From the NCBI GenBank assembly GCA_023132255.1, contig JAGLYK010000015.1, forward strand, positions 1 to 51,234: a stretch of DNA of 51,234 nt, written 5' to 3'. The notes beneath the pieces are model-generated. The model saw nothing but the letters and a program-made list of their open reading frames with translations. It did not search any database and was not told where the DNA came from. Within the stretch, counting starts at the first letter, position 1. Every line of letters starts with the position of its first letter. The translations under genes were made by a program, and so were the position numbers. This stretch comes from Candidatus Pacearchaeota archaeon. GTDB lineage: Archaea > Nanobdellota > Nanobdellia > Pacearchaeales > GW2011-AR1. Below, piece after piece: positions 7,253-48,016 of this stretch.

Positions 7253-7369
7253 TTCAAATAACAAGAAATATTTACTTTTAATAGCTTTCTAATTGTGTTG
7301 ATTTTTATCCTTTTTATAATATTAACCACCAATTCAAAACCCTCAATGTAGAAATATTCACTATAACTT

Positions 7370-7783
7370 CTATCTAAACAAAACAGATACTTCCTTGTGT
7401 TCTTTGTCAAGATATTTCTCCCAAGATTTTAACTCTTGATTTTGTTCTTTTTGAGTGTAATTAATTCCATAGATGAAATTAGAATATGCATTTAATTTAT
7501 TCTGAAGAAAAAGTTCATTATTTGATGATTCTCTAAACTTATTAATTAAACTGACAACATTATTTATTATGCTTTTCCCATCTTCAGGGATATGTTTAGA
7601 ATATTCTACATTTATAGGGTTATCATAGCGATCACGTCTTCCTACAAAAGTTCCCAATTGAAACTCCATCTCTCTAATTAATTCATCAAGAGAGCTGTTT
7701 TTAAGATTATATCTTCCTTGCTCCTTTACAAAGTATCCTTTTGAACTATGTCCGATAAATATTCTTCTTTTGTTTTTTGTCAT
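7370..7783 (-). CDS. hypothetical protein
   Basis: 137-aa ORF, divergent from the TrmB-like regulator. No recognisable motif. Confidence 0.45.
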   Translation of the reverse strand: MTKNKRRIFIGHSSKGYFVKEQGRYNLKNSSLDELIREMEFQLGTFVGRRDRYDNPINVEYSKHIPEDGKSIINNVVSLINKFRESSNNELFLQNKLNAYSNFIYGINYTQKEQNQELKSWEKYLDKEHKEVSVLFR

Positions 7784-8692: not shown

Positions 8693-9397
8693 TCATCCCA
8701 ACTTCTTAATATCCTTTATTTCTTCATTACTAATTGAACAACCTTTAAATTTAACAGCCCAAAGCAATGCATCTAATAATTTTCCGTCGCCCATTCTCAC
8801 AAGTTTTTTCTTGTATGCAATATAAACCAATTCAGCAGACCGAATTATCTTGAACTTTTTAAAAAACTCAAAATTGTTGCCCCGTTCTTTTTGCATTTGG
8901 GGTACACCTGGCGGTGATTTTTTAGAAATTATCTTGGTGTGCATTTTCTTCTCTAAAAAACTTCCTAATTTCTCAGGACTCTCAACAAGCATCCGTGTTG
9001 TCCTCTCATCAATCGCCACAACATTCAAAATATTTTTTTCAGAAAGAATTTCACTCAACGCCAAACAGGAAATTTCCCCTGCACTAACTAATTTAATATC
9101 CTTGCCTTTTCCCTCAAACATACTATTCGCAATATTTAAAATTTCTTTTGTGTTTTTTTGAATTCCTTCCACATTTGCTATCTCAAGAACCCCTTCATCT
9201 AAAAGATGCTGAATCTTCAACGCCTCCAACTTAAACCGAGTTATTGTCATTGGTATGTCAACAACCTCTCTTTTCACATCCTGCGTAATCAAAAAACTTC
9301 CATTAAAAACTTTTTTCAAATCTCGCAAAATATCCAAAATCCCATTCATAGCAAAACTAATCAAAGTGCTTGAGTCAAAGATTATTGCACGGTTCAT
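8693..9397 (-). CDS. PIN-domain-like protein
   Basis: The N-terminus (AIIFDSSTLISF...ITQDVKREV) resembles a PIN-fold nuclease. Contains the in-frame SPPGVPQMQ module. Confidence 0.5.
   Translation of the reverse strand: MNRAIIFDSSTLISFAMNGILDILRDLKKVFNGSFLITQDVKREVVDIPMTITRFKLEALKIQHLLDEGVLEIANVEGIQKNTKEILNIANSMFEGKGKDIKLVSAGEISCLALSEILSEKNILNVVAIDERTTRMLVESPEKLGSFLEKKMHTKIISKKSPPGVPQMQKERGNNFEFFKKFKIIRSAELVYIAYKKKLVRMGDGKLLDALLWAVKFKGCSISNEEIKDIKKLG
8881..8917 (-). repeat. GGTGTACC-core repeat module in frame (PPGVPQ)
   Basis: Coding strand reads CACCGCCAGGTGTACCCCAAATG. Related to the tail AACCGCCAGGTTCTTTTG of the ScpA copy and AACCGCGAGGTGTCTTTTG of the L10e copy. Confidence 0.65.
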
Positions 9398-15027: not shown

Positions 15028-16029
15028 ATGGAAAAAGATGTGAGGGATATGCGATTTCCGTCGGATTGCAATAGAGAAATTGCTTCACGGAACAGGAAGC
15101 AAATCAAAGATTTTCAGTCGTCCGCCGAGGACATCGAACGAAAGGGAGATTCCAAAGAACCGCCAGGTTCTTTTGTTCAGGAGCAAATCCACGACATTTT
15201 ATTCAACAGGGAAATCGGTTGGCAAGAAATCATCTACGACCTAATCAACACAGAACAGCTTGACCCGTGGGACATAAACATAACAATTCTAACTAACAAA
15301 TACCTTGAAAAAATAGAGCAATTTGAAGAAGCAGATTTCTTCATCTCAAGCAAAGTCCTTTTGGCAGCTGCACTTCTCCTTAGAATCAAATCTGAAATCC
15401 TGTTAAACACTTACATCAAAAGCATAGACGAAATCCTCTTTGGAAAAAAAGAAAAAAAGAAACATGTCCTTGAAAGAATCGAACTTGACGAAGAAATCCC
15501 AGAACTAATTCCCCGAAGCCCAATTCCTCGTTACAAAAAAGTTACATTAAAAGAATTAATTAATTCATTAAACAAAGCAATCAAAACCGAAAACAGAAGA
15601 ATCAAAAAAGAAATAATCCACAAAAACGCATTAAGGGAAACAGGAATCTTTTTGCCAAAAAGAAAAATCAACATCCGCAACAAGATAAAACAAATCTATG
15701 AAAACCTGTTAAGTCATCTTGGCGAGGATAAAGCCAGGAAAAAAATTTCTTTTACAGAATTTGCCGGAACAAGCAGGGAAGAAAAAATAGCTTGTTTTTC
15801 TCCGCTTCTGCATCTGGAAAATCAAAAAAAAATCTGGCTTGAACAGGAAGAGCATTTTGAAGAAATTCATCTCTGGCTCAAAAAAACTTATCTAAAACAT
15901 AATCCAGACCCATTTGCAGATTTAAAATACGAAATAGAAAAAGAGATAAAAACCGAGGACATCAAACGAGACAAAGAACAAAAACAAAGATTAGACAAAA
16001 TAAATAAAGATTTTGTGGAACTTATTTAA
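15028..16029 (+). CDS. scpA: segregation and condensation protein A (kleisin) with a repeat-derived N-terminus
   Basis: The core (WQEIIYDLINTEQLDPWDINITILTNKYLEKI...) is ScpA-like. There is no in-frame ATG/GTG/TTG downstream of the repeat, so the repeat must be translated. Confidence 0.75.
   Translation: MEKDVRDMRFPSDCNREIASRNRKQIKDFQSSAEDIERKGDSKEPPGSFVQEQIHDILFNREIGWQEIIYDLINTEQLDPWDINITILTNKYLEKIEQFEEADFFISSKVLLAAALLLRIKSEILLNTYIKSIDEILFGKKEKKKHVLERIELDEEIPELIPRSPIPRYKKVTLKELINSLNKAIKTENRRIKKEIIHKNALRETGIFLPKRKINIRNKIKQIYENLLSHLGEDKARKKISFTEFAGTSREEKIACFSPLLHLENQKKIWLEQEEHFEEIHLWLKKTYLKHNPDPFADLKYEIEKEIKTEDIKRDKEQKQRLDKINKDFVELI
15051..15175 (+). repeat. composite mosaic repeat (hairpin module M0 + module M1 + tail) forming ScpA codons 9-50
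   Basis: GCGATTTCCGTCGGATTGCAATAGAGAAATTGC (M0), then AAGCAAATCAAAGATTTTCAGTCGTCCGCCGAGGACATCGAACGAAAG (M1), then GGGAGATTCCAAAGAACCGCCAGGTTCTTTTG (tail). Confidence 0.85.
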
Positions 16030-20226: not shown

Positions 20227-20298
20227 GGTGGAAGCCGGGAGTTGAACCCAGACTTTGCGGACCACAACCACACGCGCTACCATTACGCTACATCCACC
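20227..20298 (-). tRNA. tRNA-His (GTG) with genome-encoded G-1
   Basis: G-GTGGATG acceptor (one T-T mismatch), anticodon arm TGTGG-TTGTGGT-CCGCA, T arm CTGGG-TTCAACT-CCCGG. Discriminator C can pair with G-1. Confidence 0.85.
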
Positions 20299-20451
20299 AT
20301 AATTTAACAAAGAAAAATCTAATTTATAAGGTTTTTCAGAAATAAAGTCGCAACTAGAAAAAACCTTCCTTATGATGCCGATAATTCCTAGTATTTATCA
20401 TAAAACTACCACAAAAAAAGCATTTTTAAACTTAACTAATTATATATTTTT

Positions 20452-30358: not shown

Positions 30359-30406
30359 AAACATTAATAAATACCCTTTCTTTTTATATATTGGAGGACC
30401 TATGTG

Positions 30407-30515
30407 ATTTCCCTTGGATTGCGAGCGATTTCCGAGGCTCAACAAAGTTGAGTCATCCCAGTGGGATGGTAGGGACAAAATGAAAATAATAAATAACCTG
30501 TGTGAAGTCGGGAGG
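30407..30515 (+). repeat. two-hairpin repeat element, copy 1 (candidate 5'-leader RNA)
   Basis: 55 nt (30421-30475) are identical to 39864-39918. Hairpins are CTCAAC-aaa-GTTGAG and CATCCC-agt-GGGATG. A conserved 3' box AATAACCTGTGTGAAGTCGGGAG ends 9 nt before the ATG at 30525. Confidence 0.8.
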
Positions 30516-30524
30516 AACTTTTGA

Positions 30525-32330
30525 ATGGCAAAAGCAGGTGACTACACAATCAGCAATATTTATCAGGGAAGTTATTCCAGTTTCACACCCTACAATACTG
30601 AAGCAACAGCAGGAAGCATGGGACTCACAACAGACCCCCGAAATGCAAATATACTGCAGGAAGTTTCTTCAAAATTATCAACAGGTGTAAAACACATTGA
30701 AATTGAAGCCGTTTCCCTAGATATGATTGACCAAATTCCAAAACAACAAATGGAAGAAGTCAGAAGATTAAAGGAACTAACAGGCATAGAAGTTTCAATG
30801 CATGGACCAGTTATTGATACAACAGGAATCACACAACAAGGATTCAGTGAACTGAGTAGAGAAGGCTCTGAAAGAAAAATAATCCAAACTATTAACCGAA
30901 GCCATGAGCTTGACCCAAAAGGGAATATAATTGTCAACTTTCATTCTGCAGAAGGAATCCCTGGAACAGAATGGAAAAAAATTCCAGATGCAGAAAAAAA
31001 AGGTAAAGCGAAAAAATTAATTGTAGTGAATAAAGAATCTGGAAAATTAGCCCCATTAGAATCTGAAAAAAAACATTATCCAATAATGCATGATGATAAA
31101 GGAAAATTAATCCCTCTTGAAAAAGGAGAGGTTCTTTCTCCTGAAGTAGAATTGAAATTACTTAACAATTCAGAATGGATAAATAATTTAACTAACATAG
31201 AATCTTTTAAAAAACAAGCAGATGAAATAATGTCTGAGGCAGTAACTCCTTTAGCACCTTTATTAACAGAATATAAAAAAGGAGACAAAATAGAATTTCA
31301 TACTCCAAAACAAGAAGCAGCATTTCAACAATTGCAAAGAGCGGAAATATTTTTAAGAAACGTTGAATCTAGTTTTAACGCAGTATATGATAAAGCTTAC
31401 AAATATTCAAATAAGAAAGAAAAAGAAAAATTAAAAGAAATCTCTAAAGAGTGGATTAAAGAAATGAAAGGAATTGAAGAACAAGGAAATACCTTAAATT
31501 ATCCTATGCTCAAATCACAATTATTAGATAAAGCTCTTGGGCAGATAAGACAGGTTGCACCACCTGAATTATATATTCCTATAGAAAAATTCGCAACAGA
31601 ACAAGCATCAAAAACTTTTGGCAATGCTACTTTTGAATCCTGGAAAAAATTCAAAGATAGTTCTCCAATTGTCAGTATTGAAAATCCTCCTGCAGGTTTT
31701 GCACTAAGCACAGGGGAAGATTTAAAAAATTTAGTTAAAGCTTCTAGAAGACAATTTGTAAAAAACGCAGTAGATTCTGGAAATCTTTCTAAATCCGAGG
31801 CTGAAAAACAAGCAGAAAAATTAATCGGAGCTACCTGGGATGTCGGGCATATTAACATGATAAGAAAGCAGGGGTTTGAAGATAAAGATATTATAAAAGA
31901 AACAGAAAAAATTGCACCTTATCTCAAGCATGTTCATCTTTCAGATAACTTTGGTTTTGAGCACACAGAACTTCCAATGGGAATGGGAAATGTGCCTACT
32001 AAAGAAATTATGGAAAAACTTGGCAAGAAAGGATTTGAAGCAAAAAAAATAATTGAAGCAGCACACTGGTGGCAGCATTTTAAGAGCCCTCCTGTCCAGG
32101 AAACTTTCGAAGCCATGGGTGCTCCAATTTACAGCGACGGCGTAGGTCCTTACTGGAACCAGTCATTAGGATTTCAGCAGGATTATTATTCAGGATACGG
32201 CATGATGCTTCCTTCAGTCAATTACAACATGCAGGGCTCTGGATTTTCAATGGCATCATTACCCACAGAACTCGGGGGGCAAATGCCAGGAGCACAAGGC
32301 GGAAGAATGTCTGGAAGAGGCATGGAATAA
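30525..32330 (+). CDS. xylose isomerase/endonuclease IV-like TIM-barrel protein with a large internal insertion and G/M/Q-rich tail
   Basis: Metal-site-like motifs in order: VSMHGP, VNFHSAEG, VSIENPP, WDVGHIN, HVHLSDNFGFEHTELPMGMGNV. About 230 aa of K/E-rich sequence lie between the second and third motifs. Confidence 0.55.
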   Translation: MAKAGDYTISNIYQGSYSSFTPYNTEATAGSMGLTTDPRNANILQEVSSKLSTGVKHIEIEAVSLDMIDQIPKQQMEEVRRLKELTGIEVSMHGPVIDTTGITQQGFSELSREGSERKIIQTINRSHELDPKGNIIVNFHSAEGIPGTEWKKIPDAEKKGKAKKLIVVNKESGKLAPLESEKKHYPIMHDDKGKLIPLEKGEVLSPEVELKLLNNSEWINNLTNIESFKKQADEIMSEAVTPLAPLLTEYKKGDKIEFHTPKQEAAFQQLQRAEIFLRNVESSFNAVYDKAYKYSNKKEKEKLKEISKEWIKEMKGIEEQGNTLNYPMLKSQLLDKALGQIRQVAPPELYIPIEKFATEQASKTFGNATFESWKKFKDSSPIVSIENPPAGFALSTGEDLKNLVKASRRQFVKNAVDSGNLSKSEAEKQAEKLIGATWDVGHINMIRKQGFEDKDIIKETEKIAPYLKHVHLSDNFGFEHTELPMGMGNVPTKEIMEKLGKKGFEAKKIIEAAHWWQHFKSPPVQETFEAMGAPIYSDGVGPYWNQSLGFQQDYYSGYGMMLPSVNYNMQGSGFSMASLPTELGGQMPGAQGGRMSGRGME

Positions 32331-32368: not shown

Positions 32369-33358
32369 ATGGTGACAAAAAAGAAAACTTCCAAGAAAGT
32401 AAAAAAAATTTCTAAGAAGAAACTTCCAGTTTTAGTCAGCAAGAAGAATAAGTCAAAATCTATAAAACAAAAAAAAGTTGTGAAAAAAAAATCCACCCGA
32501 TTTCCCTCGGAGGCTCTTAAAGAAGTTGCCCACCGGAACAAAAAGAAAAAATCCAAAAAAATTAATCCAAAAGATATCGCTACTTTGAATTTAAGATCAG
32601 AACATGATATTGCAATGGATTTTGCAACAAAAGCATATAAAAAATTTAACAGAGTAATAAAATCAATCATCCTCTTTGGTTCATCAATAAAACAGACTTC
32701 AACTGCAGATTCTGACATTGACATAATAATTTTAATTGACGATGTTTCAATACACTGGGACCAAAAATTAATTGCATGGTACAGGCAAGAACTTGACAAA
32801 TTATTAAAGGCAAATCCTTATGAAAAAAGCCTGCATATTAATACAGTCAAGTTAAGCACTTGGTGGGAAGATTTAATGAGAGGCGACCCAATTATCCTAA
32901 ATATTTTAAGACAAGGGAAATCATTAATTGATCTTGCAGGATTTTTTGAACCATTAAAATATTTGTTAATCAAAGGAAAAATAAAATCCACTCCTGAAGC
33001 AATTTACAGTTGTCTTCAAAGAGCACCAGTACACATACAAAGAAGCAAGTCTGCTGAATTGAATTCTATTGAAGGTTTATACTGGGCAATGGTTGACTCT
33101 GCACATGCAGCACTCATTGCTGCAAACATTTCCCCACCTTCGCCAGAACATATTGCCCCAGAACTAAAAGAAACTTTTGTCCCTGGAAAACTAAAAATGA
33201 AATATGTTGTTTGGTACAGGGATTTACTAATTCTCCATAAGGACATCACTCATGGAAGAATCCACGACCTTAAAGGCGCAGATATAGATGAATGGCAGGA
33301 TAGAACAGAAGAATTCTTGGGAGTCATGGCGAGGTTGGTTAATAAACTTGTTAGTTAA
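32369..33358 (+). CDS. nucleotidyltransferase (Pol-beta superfamily) domain protein with a helical C-domain
   Basis: ILFGSSIKQTSTADSDIDIIILIDD (GS...DxD). Paralog of 35966..37516. The K-rich first ~85 aa may not be real, and an alternative start is MDFATKAYKK. Confidence 0.6.
   Translation: MVTKKKTSKKVKKISKKKLPVLVSKKNKSKSIKQKKVVKKKSTRFPSEALKEVAHRNKKKKSKKINPKDIATLNLRSEHDIAMDFATKAYKKFNRVIKSIILFGSSIKQTSTADSDIDIIILIDDVSIHWDQKLIAWYRQELDKLLKANPYEKSLHINTVKLSTWWEDLMRGDPIILNILRQGKSLIDLAGFFEPLKYLLIKGKIKSTPEAIYSCLQRAPVHIQRSKSAELNSIEGLYWAMVDSAHAALIAANISPPSPEHIAPELKETFVPGKLKMKYVVWYRDLLILHKDITHGRIHDLKGADIDEWQDRTEEFLGVMARLVNKLVS
32497..32545 (+). repeat. hairpin module (M0) of the mosaic repeat inside the NTase ORF
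   Basis: CCGATTTCCCTCGGAGGCTCTTAAAGAAGTTGCCCACCGGAACAAAAAG compares with the minus strand of 34838-34886, GCGATTTCCATCGGAGGCTCTTAAAGAAATCGCCCACCTGAACAAAAAG. It encodes RFPSEALKEVAHRNKK in the same frame as RFPSDCNREIASRNRK in ScpA. Confidence 0.75.
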
Positions 33359-34256: not shown

Positions 34257-34799
34257 TTATTTCTTAAACTTTTCATACAAAGCTTTAGTCTTGCCCGGGA
34301 GCTTGGACTTGATTTGCTTGAATATTTTTCTTGTAAATGCAATTGCTTTTTCATTTGCCACAGCAACGAAGAAAATCTTTGAACCTGGTTTTAAAATCGC
34401 TGCCTTTCCTGTCGCCTTGCCATAAGCCAACTGCATGCCTGTCTGCATTCTGTCTGCCCCTGCTCCTGTAAGCATTTTGTTCTCTCGCTGAATATGATGC
34501 GGAAACGGAATTACCTTAAACAAATACTGCCCTGAAAGTTCCTTGTCCAGTTTCTTATTAATAAACTGCCTGCACGCCTCAAACGCATTGTGCCGAATCT
34601 GAACCTTCTCTGTTGAAATCAAAGTCAGGGTATGTGGAAGTTTGCCATTGTTGTAAAGCCCTTCCTTGCCCATTGCAAACTTCACAATCTTCTGCGGCGG
34701 CACAGTCTTAATATACGACTTCTGCCTTCTCTTGCTAACCCGGGTAAACGGAAGAACTTTCTTCTTAGAATATGCTGTTGCTTTTCTTAAAGTTGCCAT
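34257..34799 (-). CDS. rpl10e: 50S ribosomal protein L10e (uL16)
   Basis: MATLRKATAYSKKKVLPFTRVSKRRQKSYI... is a typical L10e N-terminus and length. The ATG at 34799 is preferred over the track's TTG at 34802. Confidence 0.9.
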   Translation of the reverse strand: MATLRKATAYSKKKVLPFTRVSKRRQKSYIKTVPPQKIVKFAMGKEGLYNNGKLPHTLTLISTEKVQIRHNAFEACRQFINKKLDKELSGQYLFKVIPFPHHIQRENKMLTGAGADRMQTGMQLAYGKATGKAAILKPGSKIFFVAVANEKAIAFTRKIFKQIKSKLPGKTKALYEKFKK

Positions 34800-34883
34800 C
34801 AAAAGACACCTCGCGGTTTCTTTTGTAAACTTCCCTTTTTGTTCAGGTGGGCGATTTCTTTAAGAGCCTCCGATGGAAATCGC
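34800..34883 (-). repeat. 84-nt cassette (hairpin M0 + TATA-like box + AGGTG) abutting the L10e start codon
   Basis: About 72/84 identical (hand alignment) to 39466-39549. Minus strand reads GCGATTTC-N17-GAAATCGC...GGGAAGTTTACAAAAGAAACCGCGAGGTGTCTTTTG-ATG. Confidence 0.85.
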
Positions 34884-34922
34884 GAACAAACCGTGTTTAA
34901 TTTAATTAATTGAATTTTCATG

Positions 34923-35207
34923 TTAAACTGCCCCCTCCGGAATTTCTGAAAAATGAATAAGCCCAAAATTTGATTTATATTTATTTTTATTAAGCAAATT
35001 ATAAACTTCTAAAATCTCAATTGGGGAAAGCTGAGGTAAATAACTCCTTAATGTCTTTCCTTCTTTAAAAAACGCAAATCTCCAATCATAATTTTTATTT
35101 TCTAATTTTTCAATTTCTCTTATTGAACGGATATCTTTTTGAATAAAATCTCCTTCTTTAAATACATCTTTAACTTCTTCTGCAAGTTCTATTCCTCTTA
35201 ATTTCAT
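34923..35207 (-). CDS. hypothetical protein
   Basis: 94-aa ORF, 4-nt overlap with rpl35ae. Confidence 0.4.
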   Translation of the reverse strand: MKLRGIELAEEVKDVFKEGDFIQKDIRSIREIEKLENKNYDWRFAFFKEGKTLRSYLPQLSPIEILEVYNLLNKNKYKSNFGLIHFSEIPEGAV

Positions 35208-35464
35208 TTTATCTCCACTTCTGTTGTAACTGCCTGACCTGGTAAACCCTTTTCAAAAATCGCCCTTACAACACCTTTATTTCCATGAGCACCTGAAACT
35301 TTGCCTTTGATTATTTTTCCTGCAGGAGACTTCCACACAACTTCTTTGCCAACAAACTTCTCAGCATCTGCTCGGCTTTTAATTTCTTCCACTTCTATTA
35401 AAAAATGTTTTTCCTTAATTGTGTGTCTTCCCCGTCTAAATTGTACAACTTTTCCTTTAACCAT
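35204..35464 (-). CDS. rpl35ae: 50S ribosomal protein L35Ae
   Basis: GKVVQFRRGRHTIKEKHFLIEV...GKVSGAHGNKGVVRAIFEKGLPGQA is the canonical L35Ae pattern. 86 aa. Confidence 0.9.
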   Translation of the reverse strand: MVKGKVVQFRRGRHTIKEKHFLIEVEEIKSRADAEKFVGKEVVWKSPAGKIIKGKVSGAHGNKGVVRAIFEKGLPGQAVTTEVEIK

Positions 35465-39392: not shown

Positions 39393-39464
39393 TGGTCCTA
39401 AGCAGAATCGAACTGCTGTTTCTTCGGTGTAAACGAAGTGTCTTAGCCACTGGACTATAGGACC
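39393..39464 (-). tRNA. tRNA-Val (TAC)
   Basis: Acceptor GGTCCTA/TAGGACC, anticodon arm CTTCG-TTTACAC-CGAAG, T arm AGCAG-TTCGATT-CTGCT, discriminator A. Confidence 0.85.
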
Positions 39465-39465
39465 T

Positions 39466-39549
39466 CAAAAGACACCTTGCGGTTTCTTTTGTAAACTTCC
39501 CTCTCTGTTCAGATTAGCGATTTCTTTATTGCAATCCGATGGAAATCGC
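39466..39549 (-). repeat. 84-nt cassette (hairpin M0 + TATA-like box) abutting the tRNA-Val 5' end
   Basis: Second copy of the 34800-34883 cassette. It ends 1 nt before tRNA-Val position +1. The hairpin loop variant (GGATTGCAAT) matches the ScpA copy. Confidence 0.85.
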
Positions 39550-39615
39550 AGGGATATTGCAACTATTATTTTAGTCGCATAAATTTTATATAGCATGTGT
39601 GCTTTTAAGTTTTAC

Positions 39616-39661
39616 GCGTGGTTAATTTATTGATAGAATACATCGTTGCCAACGATGTGAG
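39616..39661 (+). pseudogene. tRNA-Gly(GCC)-like 5' portion (acceptor strand, D arm, complete anticodon arm) without a recognisable T arm
   Basis: GCGTGGT-TA-ATTT-ATTGATA-GAAT-A-CATCG-TTGCCAA-CGATG-TGAG compares with the intact tRNA-Gly GCGTGAG-TA-GTTT-AATGGTA-GAAC-G-TAACG-TTGCCAA-CGTTG. It is followed by repeat-related sequence (ACCTCTAACGAGG). Confidence 0.5.
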
Positions 39662-39749
39662 CCGGGTTTCCCACAGGGATGACCTCTAACGAGGCCTCAA
39701 TTCCCTCGCGACTATATTTTTTTAAACTATCTTTTCTAATTTCTTTTAA

Positions 39750-39854: not shown

Positions 39855-39955
39855 ATTTTCCCGGCGAGCGATTTCCGAGGCTCAACAAAGTTGAGTCATC
39901 CCAGTGGGATGGTAGGGAGTAAATTTAATATTAATAACCCGTGCGAAGTCGCGAG
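39855..39955 (+). repeat. two-hairpin repeat element, copy 2
   Basis: The 55-nt core 39864-39918 is identical to 30421-30475. 3' box AATAACCCGTGCGAAGTCGCGAG. Lies between tRNA-Gly and the EamA transporter gene. Confidence 0.8.
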
Positions 39956-47445: not shown

Positions 47446-47578
47446 TCCCTCCGCCCAGATTTGAACTGGGGATCTCCCGGGTTCTGTTATGGCTTTTGGG
47501 GTTTCATAGTAATCATTATTGAATCTCCACCTTAGTTATTAACTACAGCCAGGCGCTCTACCACTGAGCTACGAAGGG
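47446..47578 (-). tRNA. tRNA-Tyr (GTA) with a 61-nt intron at the canonical 37/38 position
   Basis: C1-G72 acceptor CCCTTCG/CGGAGGG, D arm GCTC-AGTGGTA-GAGC, anticodon stem CCTGG/CCGGG, loop CTGTAG|intron|C, T arm CCCAG-TTCAAAT-CTGGG. Intron is about 47482-47542. Anticodon-intron helix CTGT/ACAG. Confidence 0.8.
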
Positions 47579-48016
47579 ATTATCCCTTTACTCCAATACC
47601 CTATACTTGGACAAGGGATATAATAAACAAATACAAATTATTTTTAAAACTATTGATTAAGAGAACTTTGGAAAATTTGGCTGTTCTCTCCTGAAAATAT
47701 TCTTTTGTTTTTTTCAGGATTCATCTTTGCCTTTTTTATTATTGCAAAGTTGCCTAGTAAACCTTTGTGCTGTTGTTTATCCTGAATTCTCAGGAAGTCA
47801 TCTTCGGTATTCTATTATCTGCGAAGTTGCCTAAAGCAAATTCTATAAAATATCTTTCCAATCCCAACAATCCTTTAGGCTGACCACGCTTTAATTCGAA
47901 ACTGAAATTTCGGATTCATGGGAGATTTTATCTCGCTTGGACAGTCTAATGAAAGACATTTTAAATGTCTTTTACAGCACGATAATTCTTAAATAACATA
48001 ATCTTCTTAATCAATT

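Follow-up and report, generated by a model that had tools for sequence, protein, structure and literature searches.

A two-hairpin cassette repeated before protein and tRNA genes in small DPANN archaea: a candidate leader for coupled translation

Why should a gene for a ribosomal protein and a gene for a transfer RNA (tRNA) begin behind the same sequence? The question is posed by the 51,234 nucleotides (nt) of the Candidatus Pacearchaeota contig JAGLYK010000015.1 analysed here (the window), where the genes for ribosomal protein L10e (uL16; 34257..34799, minus strand) and tRNA-Val(TAC) (39393..39464, minus strand, identified by ARAGORN and Rfam) are preceded by two similar 84 nt sequences, copy A at 34800..34883 and copy B at 39466..39549, both on the minus strand. 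The original prediction saw in them a portable promoter with an upstream hairpin, shared by the two genes. We find that the 84 nt are the core of a repeat family of about 115-125 nt, a multi-copy cassette of small DPANN archaea placed directly before housekeeping genes and tRNAs. With evenly balanced confidence, we favour reading it as a copied leader that would couple the translation of protein genes to a short upstream open reading frame (uORF), and whose internal promoter would be used at tRNAs.

The near-identity of the two copies was confirmed by an ungapped alignment (minus strand, 34883..34800 versus 39549..39466), with 72 of 84 positions identical, and a repeat search lengthens the match by 1 nt to 85 nt (86% identity). 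The repeat is not a chance match; in shuffles of the window, the expected number of shared 23-mers with up to 3 mismatches was 0.00. Copy A begins with hairpin 1 (34851..34883), in which 8 nt arms, GCGATTTC (34883-34876) and GAAATCGC (34858-34851), enclose a 17 nt loop, CATCGGAGGCTCTTAAA. There follow a 15 nt linker and a box resembling a B recognition element and TATA box (BRE/TATA; 34820..34835, at -36..-23 from the L10e ATG), made up of GGGAAG (34835-34830) and TTTACAAA (34829-34822). A second hairpin (34800..34825), CAAAAGA.A.ACC-GCGA-GGT.G.TCTTTTG, with a predicted energy of -10.7 kcal/mol as RNA, closes the copy. Copy B has the same arms at 39549-39542 and 39524-39517, GGGAAGTTTACAAAAG at 39501-39486, and hairpin 2 at 39491-39466 with a GCAA loop. 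Only half of the 12 differences, and not most of them as had been stated, fall within the loop of hairpin 1, at six contiguous positions (34868-34863). The others are found just 3' of hairpin 1 (34850, 34849, 34847), in the linker (34839, 34837), and at a position that we call the G/A site, which is G in copy A (34812) and A in copy B (39478). The junctions are as originally described: the L10e ATG (34799-34797) follows copy A directly, a single A (39465) separates copy B from tRNA-Val (39464..39393), and TTTACAAA occupies positions -30..-23 relative to the ATG and -31..-24 relative to the first nucleotide (+1) of the tRNA.

Further copies were sought by exact-word scans of species-representative genomes and of metagenomes, and with a covariance model built from 14 copies, which scores copy A at 106.6 bits and copy B at 103.5 bits. 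Copies, dozens in all by word and model searches, are present in metagenome-assembled genomes (MAGs) of Pacearchaeota/Woesearchaeota type, and several of these MAGs have full ones before unrelated genes, so that the idea of a cassette dispersed among unrelated genes is borne out. Full copies occur directly 5' of genes for the RFC small subunit (L007; sequences found are cited by L numbers), an Mre11-type phosphoesterase (L002), a DRG/TGS GTPase (L009), an FtsX-type permease (L076), SRP54 and S3Ae (L059), S12 (L042), an RPA-like protein (L061), a winged-helix protein (L001, L167) and L10e (L091, L096, L161), as well as tRNA-Val (L004), tRNA-Ala (L008), tRNA-His (L010) and a tRNA-like 5' piece (L003); ribosomal, replication, secretion and tRNA genes are thus all represented. 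The window itself has about 32% G+C, and as its L10e is 70-90% identical to that of MAGs labelled Woesearchaeota, Pacearchaeota or 'Nanoarchaeota', we take the host to be a DPANN archaeon.

The window contains degenerate copies as well. Copy 3 (32495..32588, plus strand, 33.6 bits) keeps hairpin 1, with G.U pairs, and the linker but has lost the 3' part; it is found inside the N-terminal extension of a nucleotidyltransferase open reading frame (ORF; 32369-33358). Copy 4 (15049..15175, plus strand) consists of hairpin 1 (15051-15083), an insert of about 20 nt, and a variant hairpin 2, AAAGAACC-GCCA-GGTTCTTT (15137-15175), and forms an in-frame N-terminal extension of ScpA (ORF 15028-16029; Pfam domain from residue 72). 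A probable fifth, broken copy, recognised by eye (30403..30524, plus strand), reads ATGTGATTTCCCTTGGATTGC ... GAACTTTTGA and then ATG, precedes the gene at 30525, and encloses a nested copy of a second repeat family.

Other matches were set aside. The metagenome scan gave 70, mostly of high G+C and without the rest of the cassette, and a rough estimate for 17 fixed bases is about 70 by chance; bacterial and high-G+C matches, in which the rest of the cassette is missing, were attributed to chance. Six matches on viral contigs represent one unrelated sequence, again without the rest of the cassette, and a viral or plasmid origin was rejected. A search of Rfam for a known RNA family gave nothing at the gathering threshold, and an E-value threshold returned chance-level matches far below the cut-offs. 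A C/D-box small RNA was rejected because the CTGA of the linker is not kept across copies. Several hot-spring contigs (L024, L043, L045, L050, L052, L069, L072, L074, L079, L085) carry GATAAGAAACCGCAAGGTGTCTTATC, which has the same hairpin core within another outer stem. The T-arm and acceptor 3' half of a tRNA come immediately after it, and it is part of an ORF that begins MSEQNPELREDDKKPQGVLS. Either a chance match or the N-terminal part of an integrase, together with an attachment site, could account for this, and the group was not used.

Both hairpins are under structural selection. Among 14 full copies, both partners have changed in six of the eight hairpin-1 pairs, and in no pair has one partner changed alone. 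In an alignment of 29 copies, which was fitted to the structure of the model and so leans towards it, 97% of cells pair and compensatory double changes affect 15 of 18 pairs, all 8 in hairpin 1 and 7 of 10 in hairpin 2; values as high as these came from none of 500 shuffles, and pairing in slid controls was 42-54%. The hairpin originally proposed is therefore upheld, covarying at each of its pairs, but the second one had been overlooked. This second hairpin is found in all copies as CAAAAGA-A-ACC-GNRA-GGT-G-TCTTTTG, with GCGA or GCAA as its GNRA loop and a conserved A.G mismatch; it begins inside TTTACAAA, so spanning the proposed TATA box, ends at -1 of the gene, and holds a Shine-Dalgarno sequence in its loop and 3' strand. 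Five G.U pairs are carried by the sense strand, while the folding energies of sense and antisense strands are similar and do not reveal which of them folds.

The stems are conserved as structures rather than as sequences. Within a single MAG, CSMAG_2067, the hairpin-1 stems are GCAACTTC/GAAGTTGC and GCGATTTC/GAAATCGC, and C24_maxbin.320 has GCGATAT/ATATCGC, ACGACAT/ATGTCGT and GCGATTTC; among copies, loop lengths of 14 to 71 nt occur. Such variation argues for a folded strand and not for a dimeric factor bound to two half-sites, and a common regulator-binding hairpin in the sense of a sequence-specific palindrome was accordingly rejected. Diverged copies have likewise acquired new hairpin-2 stems, namely GCGAAGGA/TCCTCGC in L091, GGAAACC/GGTTTCC in L040, AAAAGAAACC/GGTTTCTTTT in L096 and AAAGAACC/GGTTCTTT at 15137 in the window, and the 5' strands of these are no longer TATA-like. 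Three copies have lost the TATA-like box but kept hairpin 2 and its AGGT: L091 (GTTACGCG), L040 (GAGTGTGAGAGG) and L059 (TTGACCCAC). TTTACAAA, originally read as a TATA box, is the 5' strand of this conserved hairpin, which diverged copies keep by compensatory changes after the TATA-like sequence is lost.

A property of the protein-gene copies that had been missed is that they are open reading frames. Cassette A in its full length (34799..34921, minus strand) is a 40-codon uORF, MKIQLIKLNTVCSRFPSEALKEIAHLNKKGSLQKKPRGVF, with its ATG at 34921-34919 and a TGA at 34801-34799 that overlaps the L10e ATG (TGATG); its GGGAAG+TTTACAAA box doubles as the codons K-G-S-L-Q-K. In all ten protein-gene copies the frame is open for at least 113 nt (113-320 nt upstream) and ends in a stop overlapping the ATG of the gene. 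Standard copies all read TGATG or TAATG at this point, and diverged ones have the stop within 13 nt of the ATG. Length changes preserve the frame while the indels rewrite the peptide wholly: 3 nt are lost in L002, 54 nt are gained in L001, and in L009 and L015 a loss of 1 nt in hairpin 1 is offset by a gain of 1 nt in the linker. The N-terminus of the cassette A uORF is homologous to those of L001, L167, L096 and L161, and in L040 (before an RFC-large-like gene) and at ScpA in the window the frame of the cassette continues straight into the gene. The frame is kept open, and we think that the peptide sequence is unconstrained. Five of seven full copies with no ATG behind them have stops or frameshifts and two are open, which differs from the protein copies (10/0 versus 2/5) at a Fisher p of 0.003. 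The G/A site divides the copies in the same manner: it is G in 8 of 8 full copies followed by an ATG (L167 being a ninth), where it creates GAGGTG at -12..-7 (34807..34812 in copy A, minus strand), and A in 8 of 8 other full copies (p = 1.6e-4). As the copies are mutually related, the Fisher tests overstate their independence and both p-values are optimistic. At protein genes there is thus an open upstream frame that overlaps the main start, and a Shine-Dalgarno sequence ending 7 nt upstream of the gene's ATG, a working distance, within a hairpin of computed stability.

How ordinary genes start in this genome was surveyed at 58 other genes of the window. The first bases of TATA-like octamers form a sharp peak 29 nt before the ATG (15 exactly at -29, 16 genes at -33..-28), and by eye about 30 genes have a BRE/TATA at that place. 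Shine-Dalgarno-like pentamers are found at -13..-9 in 10 genes, and none of the 58 has both signals. Judging from these signals, genes of the window have two ways of starting: leaderless and, within operons, with a Shine-Dalgarno sequence. L10e is alone among 59 genes in having both a TATA-like box at -30 and a Shine-Dalgarno sequence at -12.

The uORFs have start signals of their own. If the gene upstream is divergent or far away, the uORF ATG has a canonical TATA box at -29/-28 (L002 TTTATATA, L011 TTTATAAA, L015 CTTATAAA, and also L009, L167 and L007), while uORFs internal to operons (copy A of the window, L076, L091, L161) have a Shine-Dalgarno-like run on their 5' side instead, and these two modes match those of ordinary window genes. 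The regions upstream of the uORFs are not homologous between copies, and hence these signals would be resident promoters outside the repeat. Since the uORFs have their own TATA box or Shine-Dalgarno sequence, transcription very probably starts upstream of hairpin 1, also at L10e, and the protein-gene cassettes are very probably transcribed and translated; this would make the element at L10e a transcribed leader, a case that the original prediction had itself named as speaking against its view. In cassette B, the degenerate 5' part (39550..39609, minus strand, by eye), with an ATG at 39580-39578 and a broken frame, is homologous to the 5' ends of the uORFs of L167 and L001, and the TATA-like CTTAAAAG (39609-39602, by eye), at -29..-22 from that ATG, is a candidate resident promoter.

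In the explanation that we favour, a cassette of about 115-125 nt would have come to lie between a resident promoter and the first nucleotide of a gene. At protein genes, transcription would start from the resident promoter, with its TATA box about 29 nt upstream of the cassette ATG, and the short uORF would be translated, either leaderless or by coupling, up to a stop overlapping the AUG of the gene (UGAUG). The ribosome finishing the uORF would melt hairpin 2 and so expose the Shine-Dalgarno sequence (GAGGUG, -12..-7) and the AUG, allowing re-initiation on the gene. At tRNA genes, where the uORF decays and A replaces G in the Shine-Dalgarno sequence, the 5' strand of hairpin 2 together with GGGAAG would serve as BRE/TATA at the leaderless distance, and this internal promoter would probably make a leaderless tRNA.

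Bacterial operons and the RNA phage MS2 offer familiar cases of translational coupling in which upstream translation opens a hairpin that contains the ribosome-binding site. The cassette resembles those systems in that the stop of the uORF overlaps the AUG, the Shine-Dalgarno sequence is contained in a stable hairpin ending at the start codon, and the peptide is free to vary. It differs in being a module copied before many unrelated genes, including RNA genes, and coupling is here a proposal derived from its features.

The tRNA copies are best judged against the geometry of the other tRNA genes in the window. A TATA-like octamer at -31..-24, as at tRNA-Val, is also present at tRNA-Trp, tRNA-Gly and tRNA-His, the last counted from its encoded G-1 at 20298, and a purine-rich run lies 5' of the box; the stretches concerned are 7253-7284 (Trp), 20298-20330 (His), 39719-39749 (Gly) and 39465-39496 (Val). 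Four of the five tRNAs thus fit one distance, and the intron-bearing tRNA-Tyr does not. The distance claimed for GGGAAG+TTTACAAA in the original prediction is consequently one that this genome seems to use for leaderless starts, both at these tRNAs and at protein genes. By comparison with Nanoarchaeum equitans, whose leaderless tRNAs have their promoter at a fixed distance (PMC10100707), this suggests that the tRNAs of the window are transcribed leaderless. The likeness is to a related DPANN lineage; unlike in N. equitans, the interval from box to start is here a conserved hairpin common to protein genes, within a longer repeat with another hairpin, the cassette is preceded by a second promoter-like box, and tRNA-Tyr departs from the distance rule. 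Rfam searches of the 51 kb window and of fragments of related MAGs detected no RNase P RNA. In L008, the box has gained 1 nt and the junction has lost its A, so that 31 nt to the tRNA-Ala +1 are kept, and the box is retained in all copies not followed by an ATG, which keep or sharpen it even at the cost of stop codons (TTTATAAAAG in L061, TTTCTAAAAG in L058). Taken together with the distance, this makes an internal promoter giving a leaderless tRNA likely.

The exceptional tRNA-Tyr (47446-47640, minus strand; anticodon GTA by eye, C1) has its nearest TATA-like run at about -48..-39. The implied leader of about 19 nt (..AAGGGATAAT) is able to base-pair with the 5' strand of the tRNA itself, and GGGATAAT is repeated immediately beyond its 3' end. 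Between tRNA-Val and tRNA-Gly there is a tRNA-like piece (39623-39713, plus strand; 19.6 bits with the Rfam tRNA model, below threshold), composed of a look-alike of a GCC anticodon arm, CATCGTTGCCAACGATG, and a module of about 30 nt, TCCCACAGGGATGACCTCTAACGAGGCCTCA. The same module interrupts the D-loop of the tRNA 5' part directly after the cassette in L003 (6999-7029), and may be an intron-like insert or indicate a split tRNA.

Of the alternatives, the one that survives best, though we consider it unlikely, is essentially that of the original prediction: a self-contained portable promoter, in which GGGAAG+TTTACAAA would be the BRE/TATA of both genes, transcripts would start at the ATG or at the tRNA +1, the open frame and Shine-Dalgarno sequence would be by-products, and hairpin 1 would be an upstream regulatory or insulating element. 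Its strength is that the box has the canonical distance for this genome, an octamer at the leaderless position preceded by a purine-rich BRE (by eye, compare GGGAAG with AGAAAG at tRNA-Trp and with AAAAG/AACAA at many genes), and that it resembles the tRNA-Trp promoter, AGAAAG-CTATTAAAAG; the compensating indel of L008 and the TATA boxes of copies lacking an ATG also speak for it. It does not account for the frame kept by multiples of 3 nt or compensated indels in all protein copies, for a G retained only where a Shine-Dalgarno sequence results, or for uORFs with a TATA box at -29 of their own. The box is not conserved among homologous copies, L091, L040 and L059 having lost it but kept the hairpin, and ordinary window promoters have no conserved sequence between TATA and start. 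A TATA-driven leaderless L10e mRNA with an upstream regulator hairpin is therefore probably wrong at the protein copy, where uORF, Shine-Dalgarno sequence and upstream start signals stand against it, but the same view is plausible at the copy before tRNA-Val.

Several observations fit poorly with the leader that we favour. The 37 nt from GGGAAG to TTTTG are equally invariant in tRNA copies, where neither the uORF nor the Shine-Dalgarno sequence would be expected to matter, and a comparison of the window with L004 shows them to be better conserved than the gene for tRNA-Val. Hairpin 1 has no role in the model. A well preserved copy in L061 faces no gene start and abuts the stop of a convergent ftsZ-like ORF (by eye, from an N-terminal motif), another in L058 is antisense in the 5' end of a gene, and in L010 tRNA-His begins 3-4 nt downstream of the cassette. 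In protein copies, GGGAAG is not at a constant distance from the start (28 nt in L076, 32 nt in L059). To these must be added the relatedness of the copies and the leaning of the 29-copy alignment, described above, and the fact that every start site is deduced from sequence.

The 37 nt invariance, hairpin 1 and the two copies without a gene start keep alive a further explanation, which we regard as improbable, in which the cassette is a structured RNA leader served by one trans-acting factor. This would be either an endonuclease cutting at the 3' base of hairpin 2, which would release leaderless mRNAs and mature tRNA 5' ends, or a common RNA-binding regulator. Consistent with such a factor, the 37 nt block shows no variation between the two gene classes or between species, the cassette runs flush up to the ATG or tRNA +1, the loops are of GNRA type (GCGA/GCAA) with the conserved A.G mismatch, the five G.U pairs are on the sense strand, and resident promoters lie upstream. 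However, there is no candidate enzyme, coupling together with an internal promoter covers most features without any factor, the other tRNAs of the window that obey the leaderless distance need no processing, and loop and spacing change in diverged copies.

The distribution of copies bears on how they spread, and indicates that they arose by copying or insertion at gene starts, as we infer from their sequences. At L10e the cassette is patchy, being present at 3 of 80 related loci; in most relatives L35Ae, ending in ...TAAA, directly abuts the ATG of L10e. In carriers, a small ORF lies between L35Ae and cassette, of 94 codons in the window (34923-35207, minus strand), 92 in L091 (1092-1370) and 71 in L161 (1052-1267). 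At the beginning of two of these ORFs, part of the L10e start is repeated (ATG..TTAAGA). No mutual similarity was detectable among the three and the window ORF had no Pfam match, and a role as part of a mobile unit was rejected as the ORFs of the three species are unrelated. The slot between L35Ae and L10e may be a hotspot for small genes or may hold translated spacers kept open for coupling; in the window, L35Ae (35464-35204), the 94-codon ORF (35207-34923), both directly 5' of the uORF (34923..35464, minus strand), the uORF and L10e form a continuous chain of abutting or overlapping frames. Two tandem cassettes lie between duplicated ATGGTTAGATTT (12 nt) in L002, tandem cassettes are also found in L096 and L161, and L001 has a 54 nt insertion in the loop of hairpin 1 that is missing in its orthologue L167. 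In a subgroup (L017, L019, L040, L060, L075, L084, and L003 at 7618-7682), the 3' half of the cassette is followed by a 10-22 nt copy of a tRNA 3' end, the source tRNA lying 70-115 nt upstream. This arrangement is seen at 8966-9055 in L084, 56-211 and 336-381 in L075, 4020-4162 in L017 and 7400-7702 in L003, the last with three fragments that end in GGTCGGGGCG and two 5' pieces that begin with GCCCCGATAGTT. The tRNA 3'-end copies may be insertion scars or parts of split or shared tRNAs. Flanking duplications vary from the ATG only, through 4 nt, 12 nt (L002) and about 15-18 nt (the L10e lineage), to the 10-22 nt tRNA 3' ends.

These duplications are bounded by RNA ends, the +1 of an mRNA or the 3' end of a tRNA, which is a hint of an RNA-mediated step. 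A more speculative variant, which we rate just as low as the factor alone, is a mobile leader that seeks start sites and inserts at the first transcribed nucleotide, its invariant 3' hairpin being read by a dedicated factor standing in for RNase P. It would be the DNA-encoded counterpart of a spliced leader, the factor releasing leaderless mRNAs and mature tRNA 5' ends; if true, a set of housekeeping genes would be under one control.

Slightly less probable again is a selfish miniature mobile element, in which the hairpins serve its own transposition, for example as single-stranded DNA hairpins like those of elements derived from IS200/IS605, and the expression signals merely limit harm to the interrupted gene. 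In its favour one can cite the patchiness at L10e, the occurrence of copies in tandem, nested, degenerate or orphan form, the duplication of gene starts and of tRNA 3' ends at the flanks, and stem changes that are nearly all Watson-Crick. Against it, the tRNA-Val copy is syntenic in two species (the window and L004) and the cassette is missing from viral contigs. The two hairpins are internal and unlike each other (by eye), there are no terminal inverted repeats, the duplications of 3-22 nt have neither a fixed length nor a fixed target motif, and no transposase is linked to the cassette (whole MAGs were not screened), for which reasons we do not file it as a miniature inverted-repeat transposable element. 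Mobility of this kind is compatible with the leader explanation and does not exclude it.

Putative mobile promoters have been defined as stretches of 50 nt or more that precede non-paralogous genes and are at least 80% identical (Matus-Garcia/Nijveen; PMC3575422), a definition covering the 86% over 85 nt before L10e and tRNA-Val, with the qualification that the region sampled in that study (-150..-50) overlaps the cassette only in part. Like these promoters and the Correia, ERIC and REPIN elements (PMC3575422), the cassette is a similar sequence before unrelated genes and across species, carries expression signals, and sometimes extends into ORFs. Unlike them, it is archaeal, includes tRNA genes, has flush junctions and no terminal inverted repeats, and combines a maintained uORF and a stop-start overlap with a hairpin that is TATA-like on one strand and has a Shine-Dalgarno sequence on the other.

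Finally, a small conserved protein gene, its AbrB/MazE-like N-terminal peptide repeated before other genes, is very improbable: the N-terminus of the 40-codon ORF (MKIK.IKLN.V) recurs in several copies and ..V.RFPSEALKEIA..G resembles AbrB-type motifs by eye, but the peptide has no Pfam match even at E = 0.1, its two database relatives are both cassettes, compensated frameshifts alter it wholly in L009, L015 and L076, synonymous sites are invariant in the 3' 37 nt, and the frame is broken in tRNA copies.

Some further repeats were noted beside these loci. The second repeat family occurs at 30421-30481 and 39864-39924 of the window (plus strand) as 61 nt with 97% identity, GAGCGATTTCC..CATCCCAGTGGGATG.., apparently closed by ..GAAGTCGGGAG; the 54 nt loop insertion of L001 and a sequence beside a tRNA 3' fragment in L003 (about 7497-7557) are relatives. 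In other species (L087, L113, L124, L128, L134, L159), a different insert of about 50-55 nt lies some 70 nt upstream of the L10e ATG and is flanked by two copies of the first 13-18 nt of the gene, for example [ ATGGCATCATTAA ]..TTTGAATGCTTCCATTCAAA..GGAGGCAGA[ ATGGCATCATTAAGA ]. It contains a hairpin, GGAGG and a short uORF starting like L10e. The motif GAACGAAGTGA follows the cassette directly in L005 (3830-3895, minus strand), with a C/D-box-like TGATGA..CTGA about 30 nt downstream, and is found again just before tRNA-Arg in L084 (about 9110-9135, minus strand).

We found no description of this cassette in searches of the literature on related topics, nor in Rfam, and almost nothing is known of gene expression in the tiny genomes of DPANN archaea. 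The data suggest that one module of about 120 nt has been copied before replication, ribosomal, secretion and tRNA genes. It appears to turn leaderless genes into ones that are coupled to a uORF and depend on a Shine-Dalgarno sequence, and a single hairpin seems to hold three overlapping signals, a promoter box, a ribosome-binding site and a stop-start overlap. The apparent leaderless geometry of the window tRNAs would extend the situation in Nanoarchaeum to a second, mesophilic lineage. If confirmed, the cassette would be an archaeal case of promoter and leader propagation, would point to a possible regulon of core genes, and would offer the engineering of expression a compact part of natural origin.

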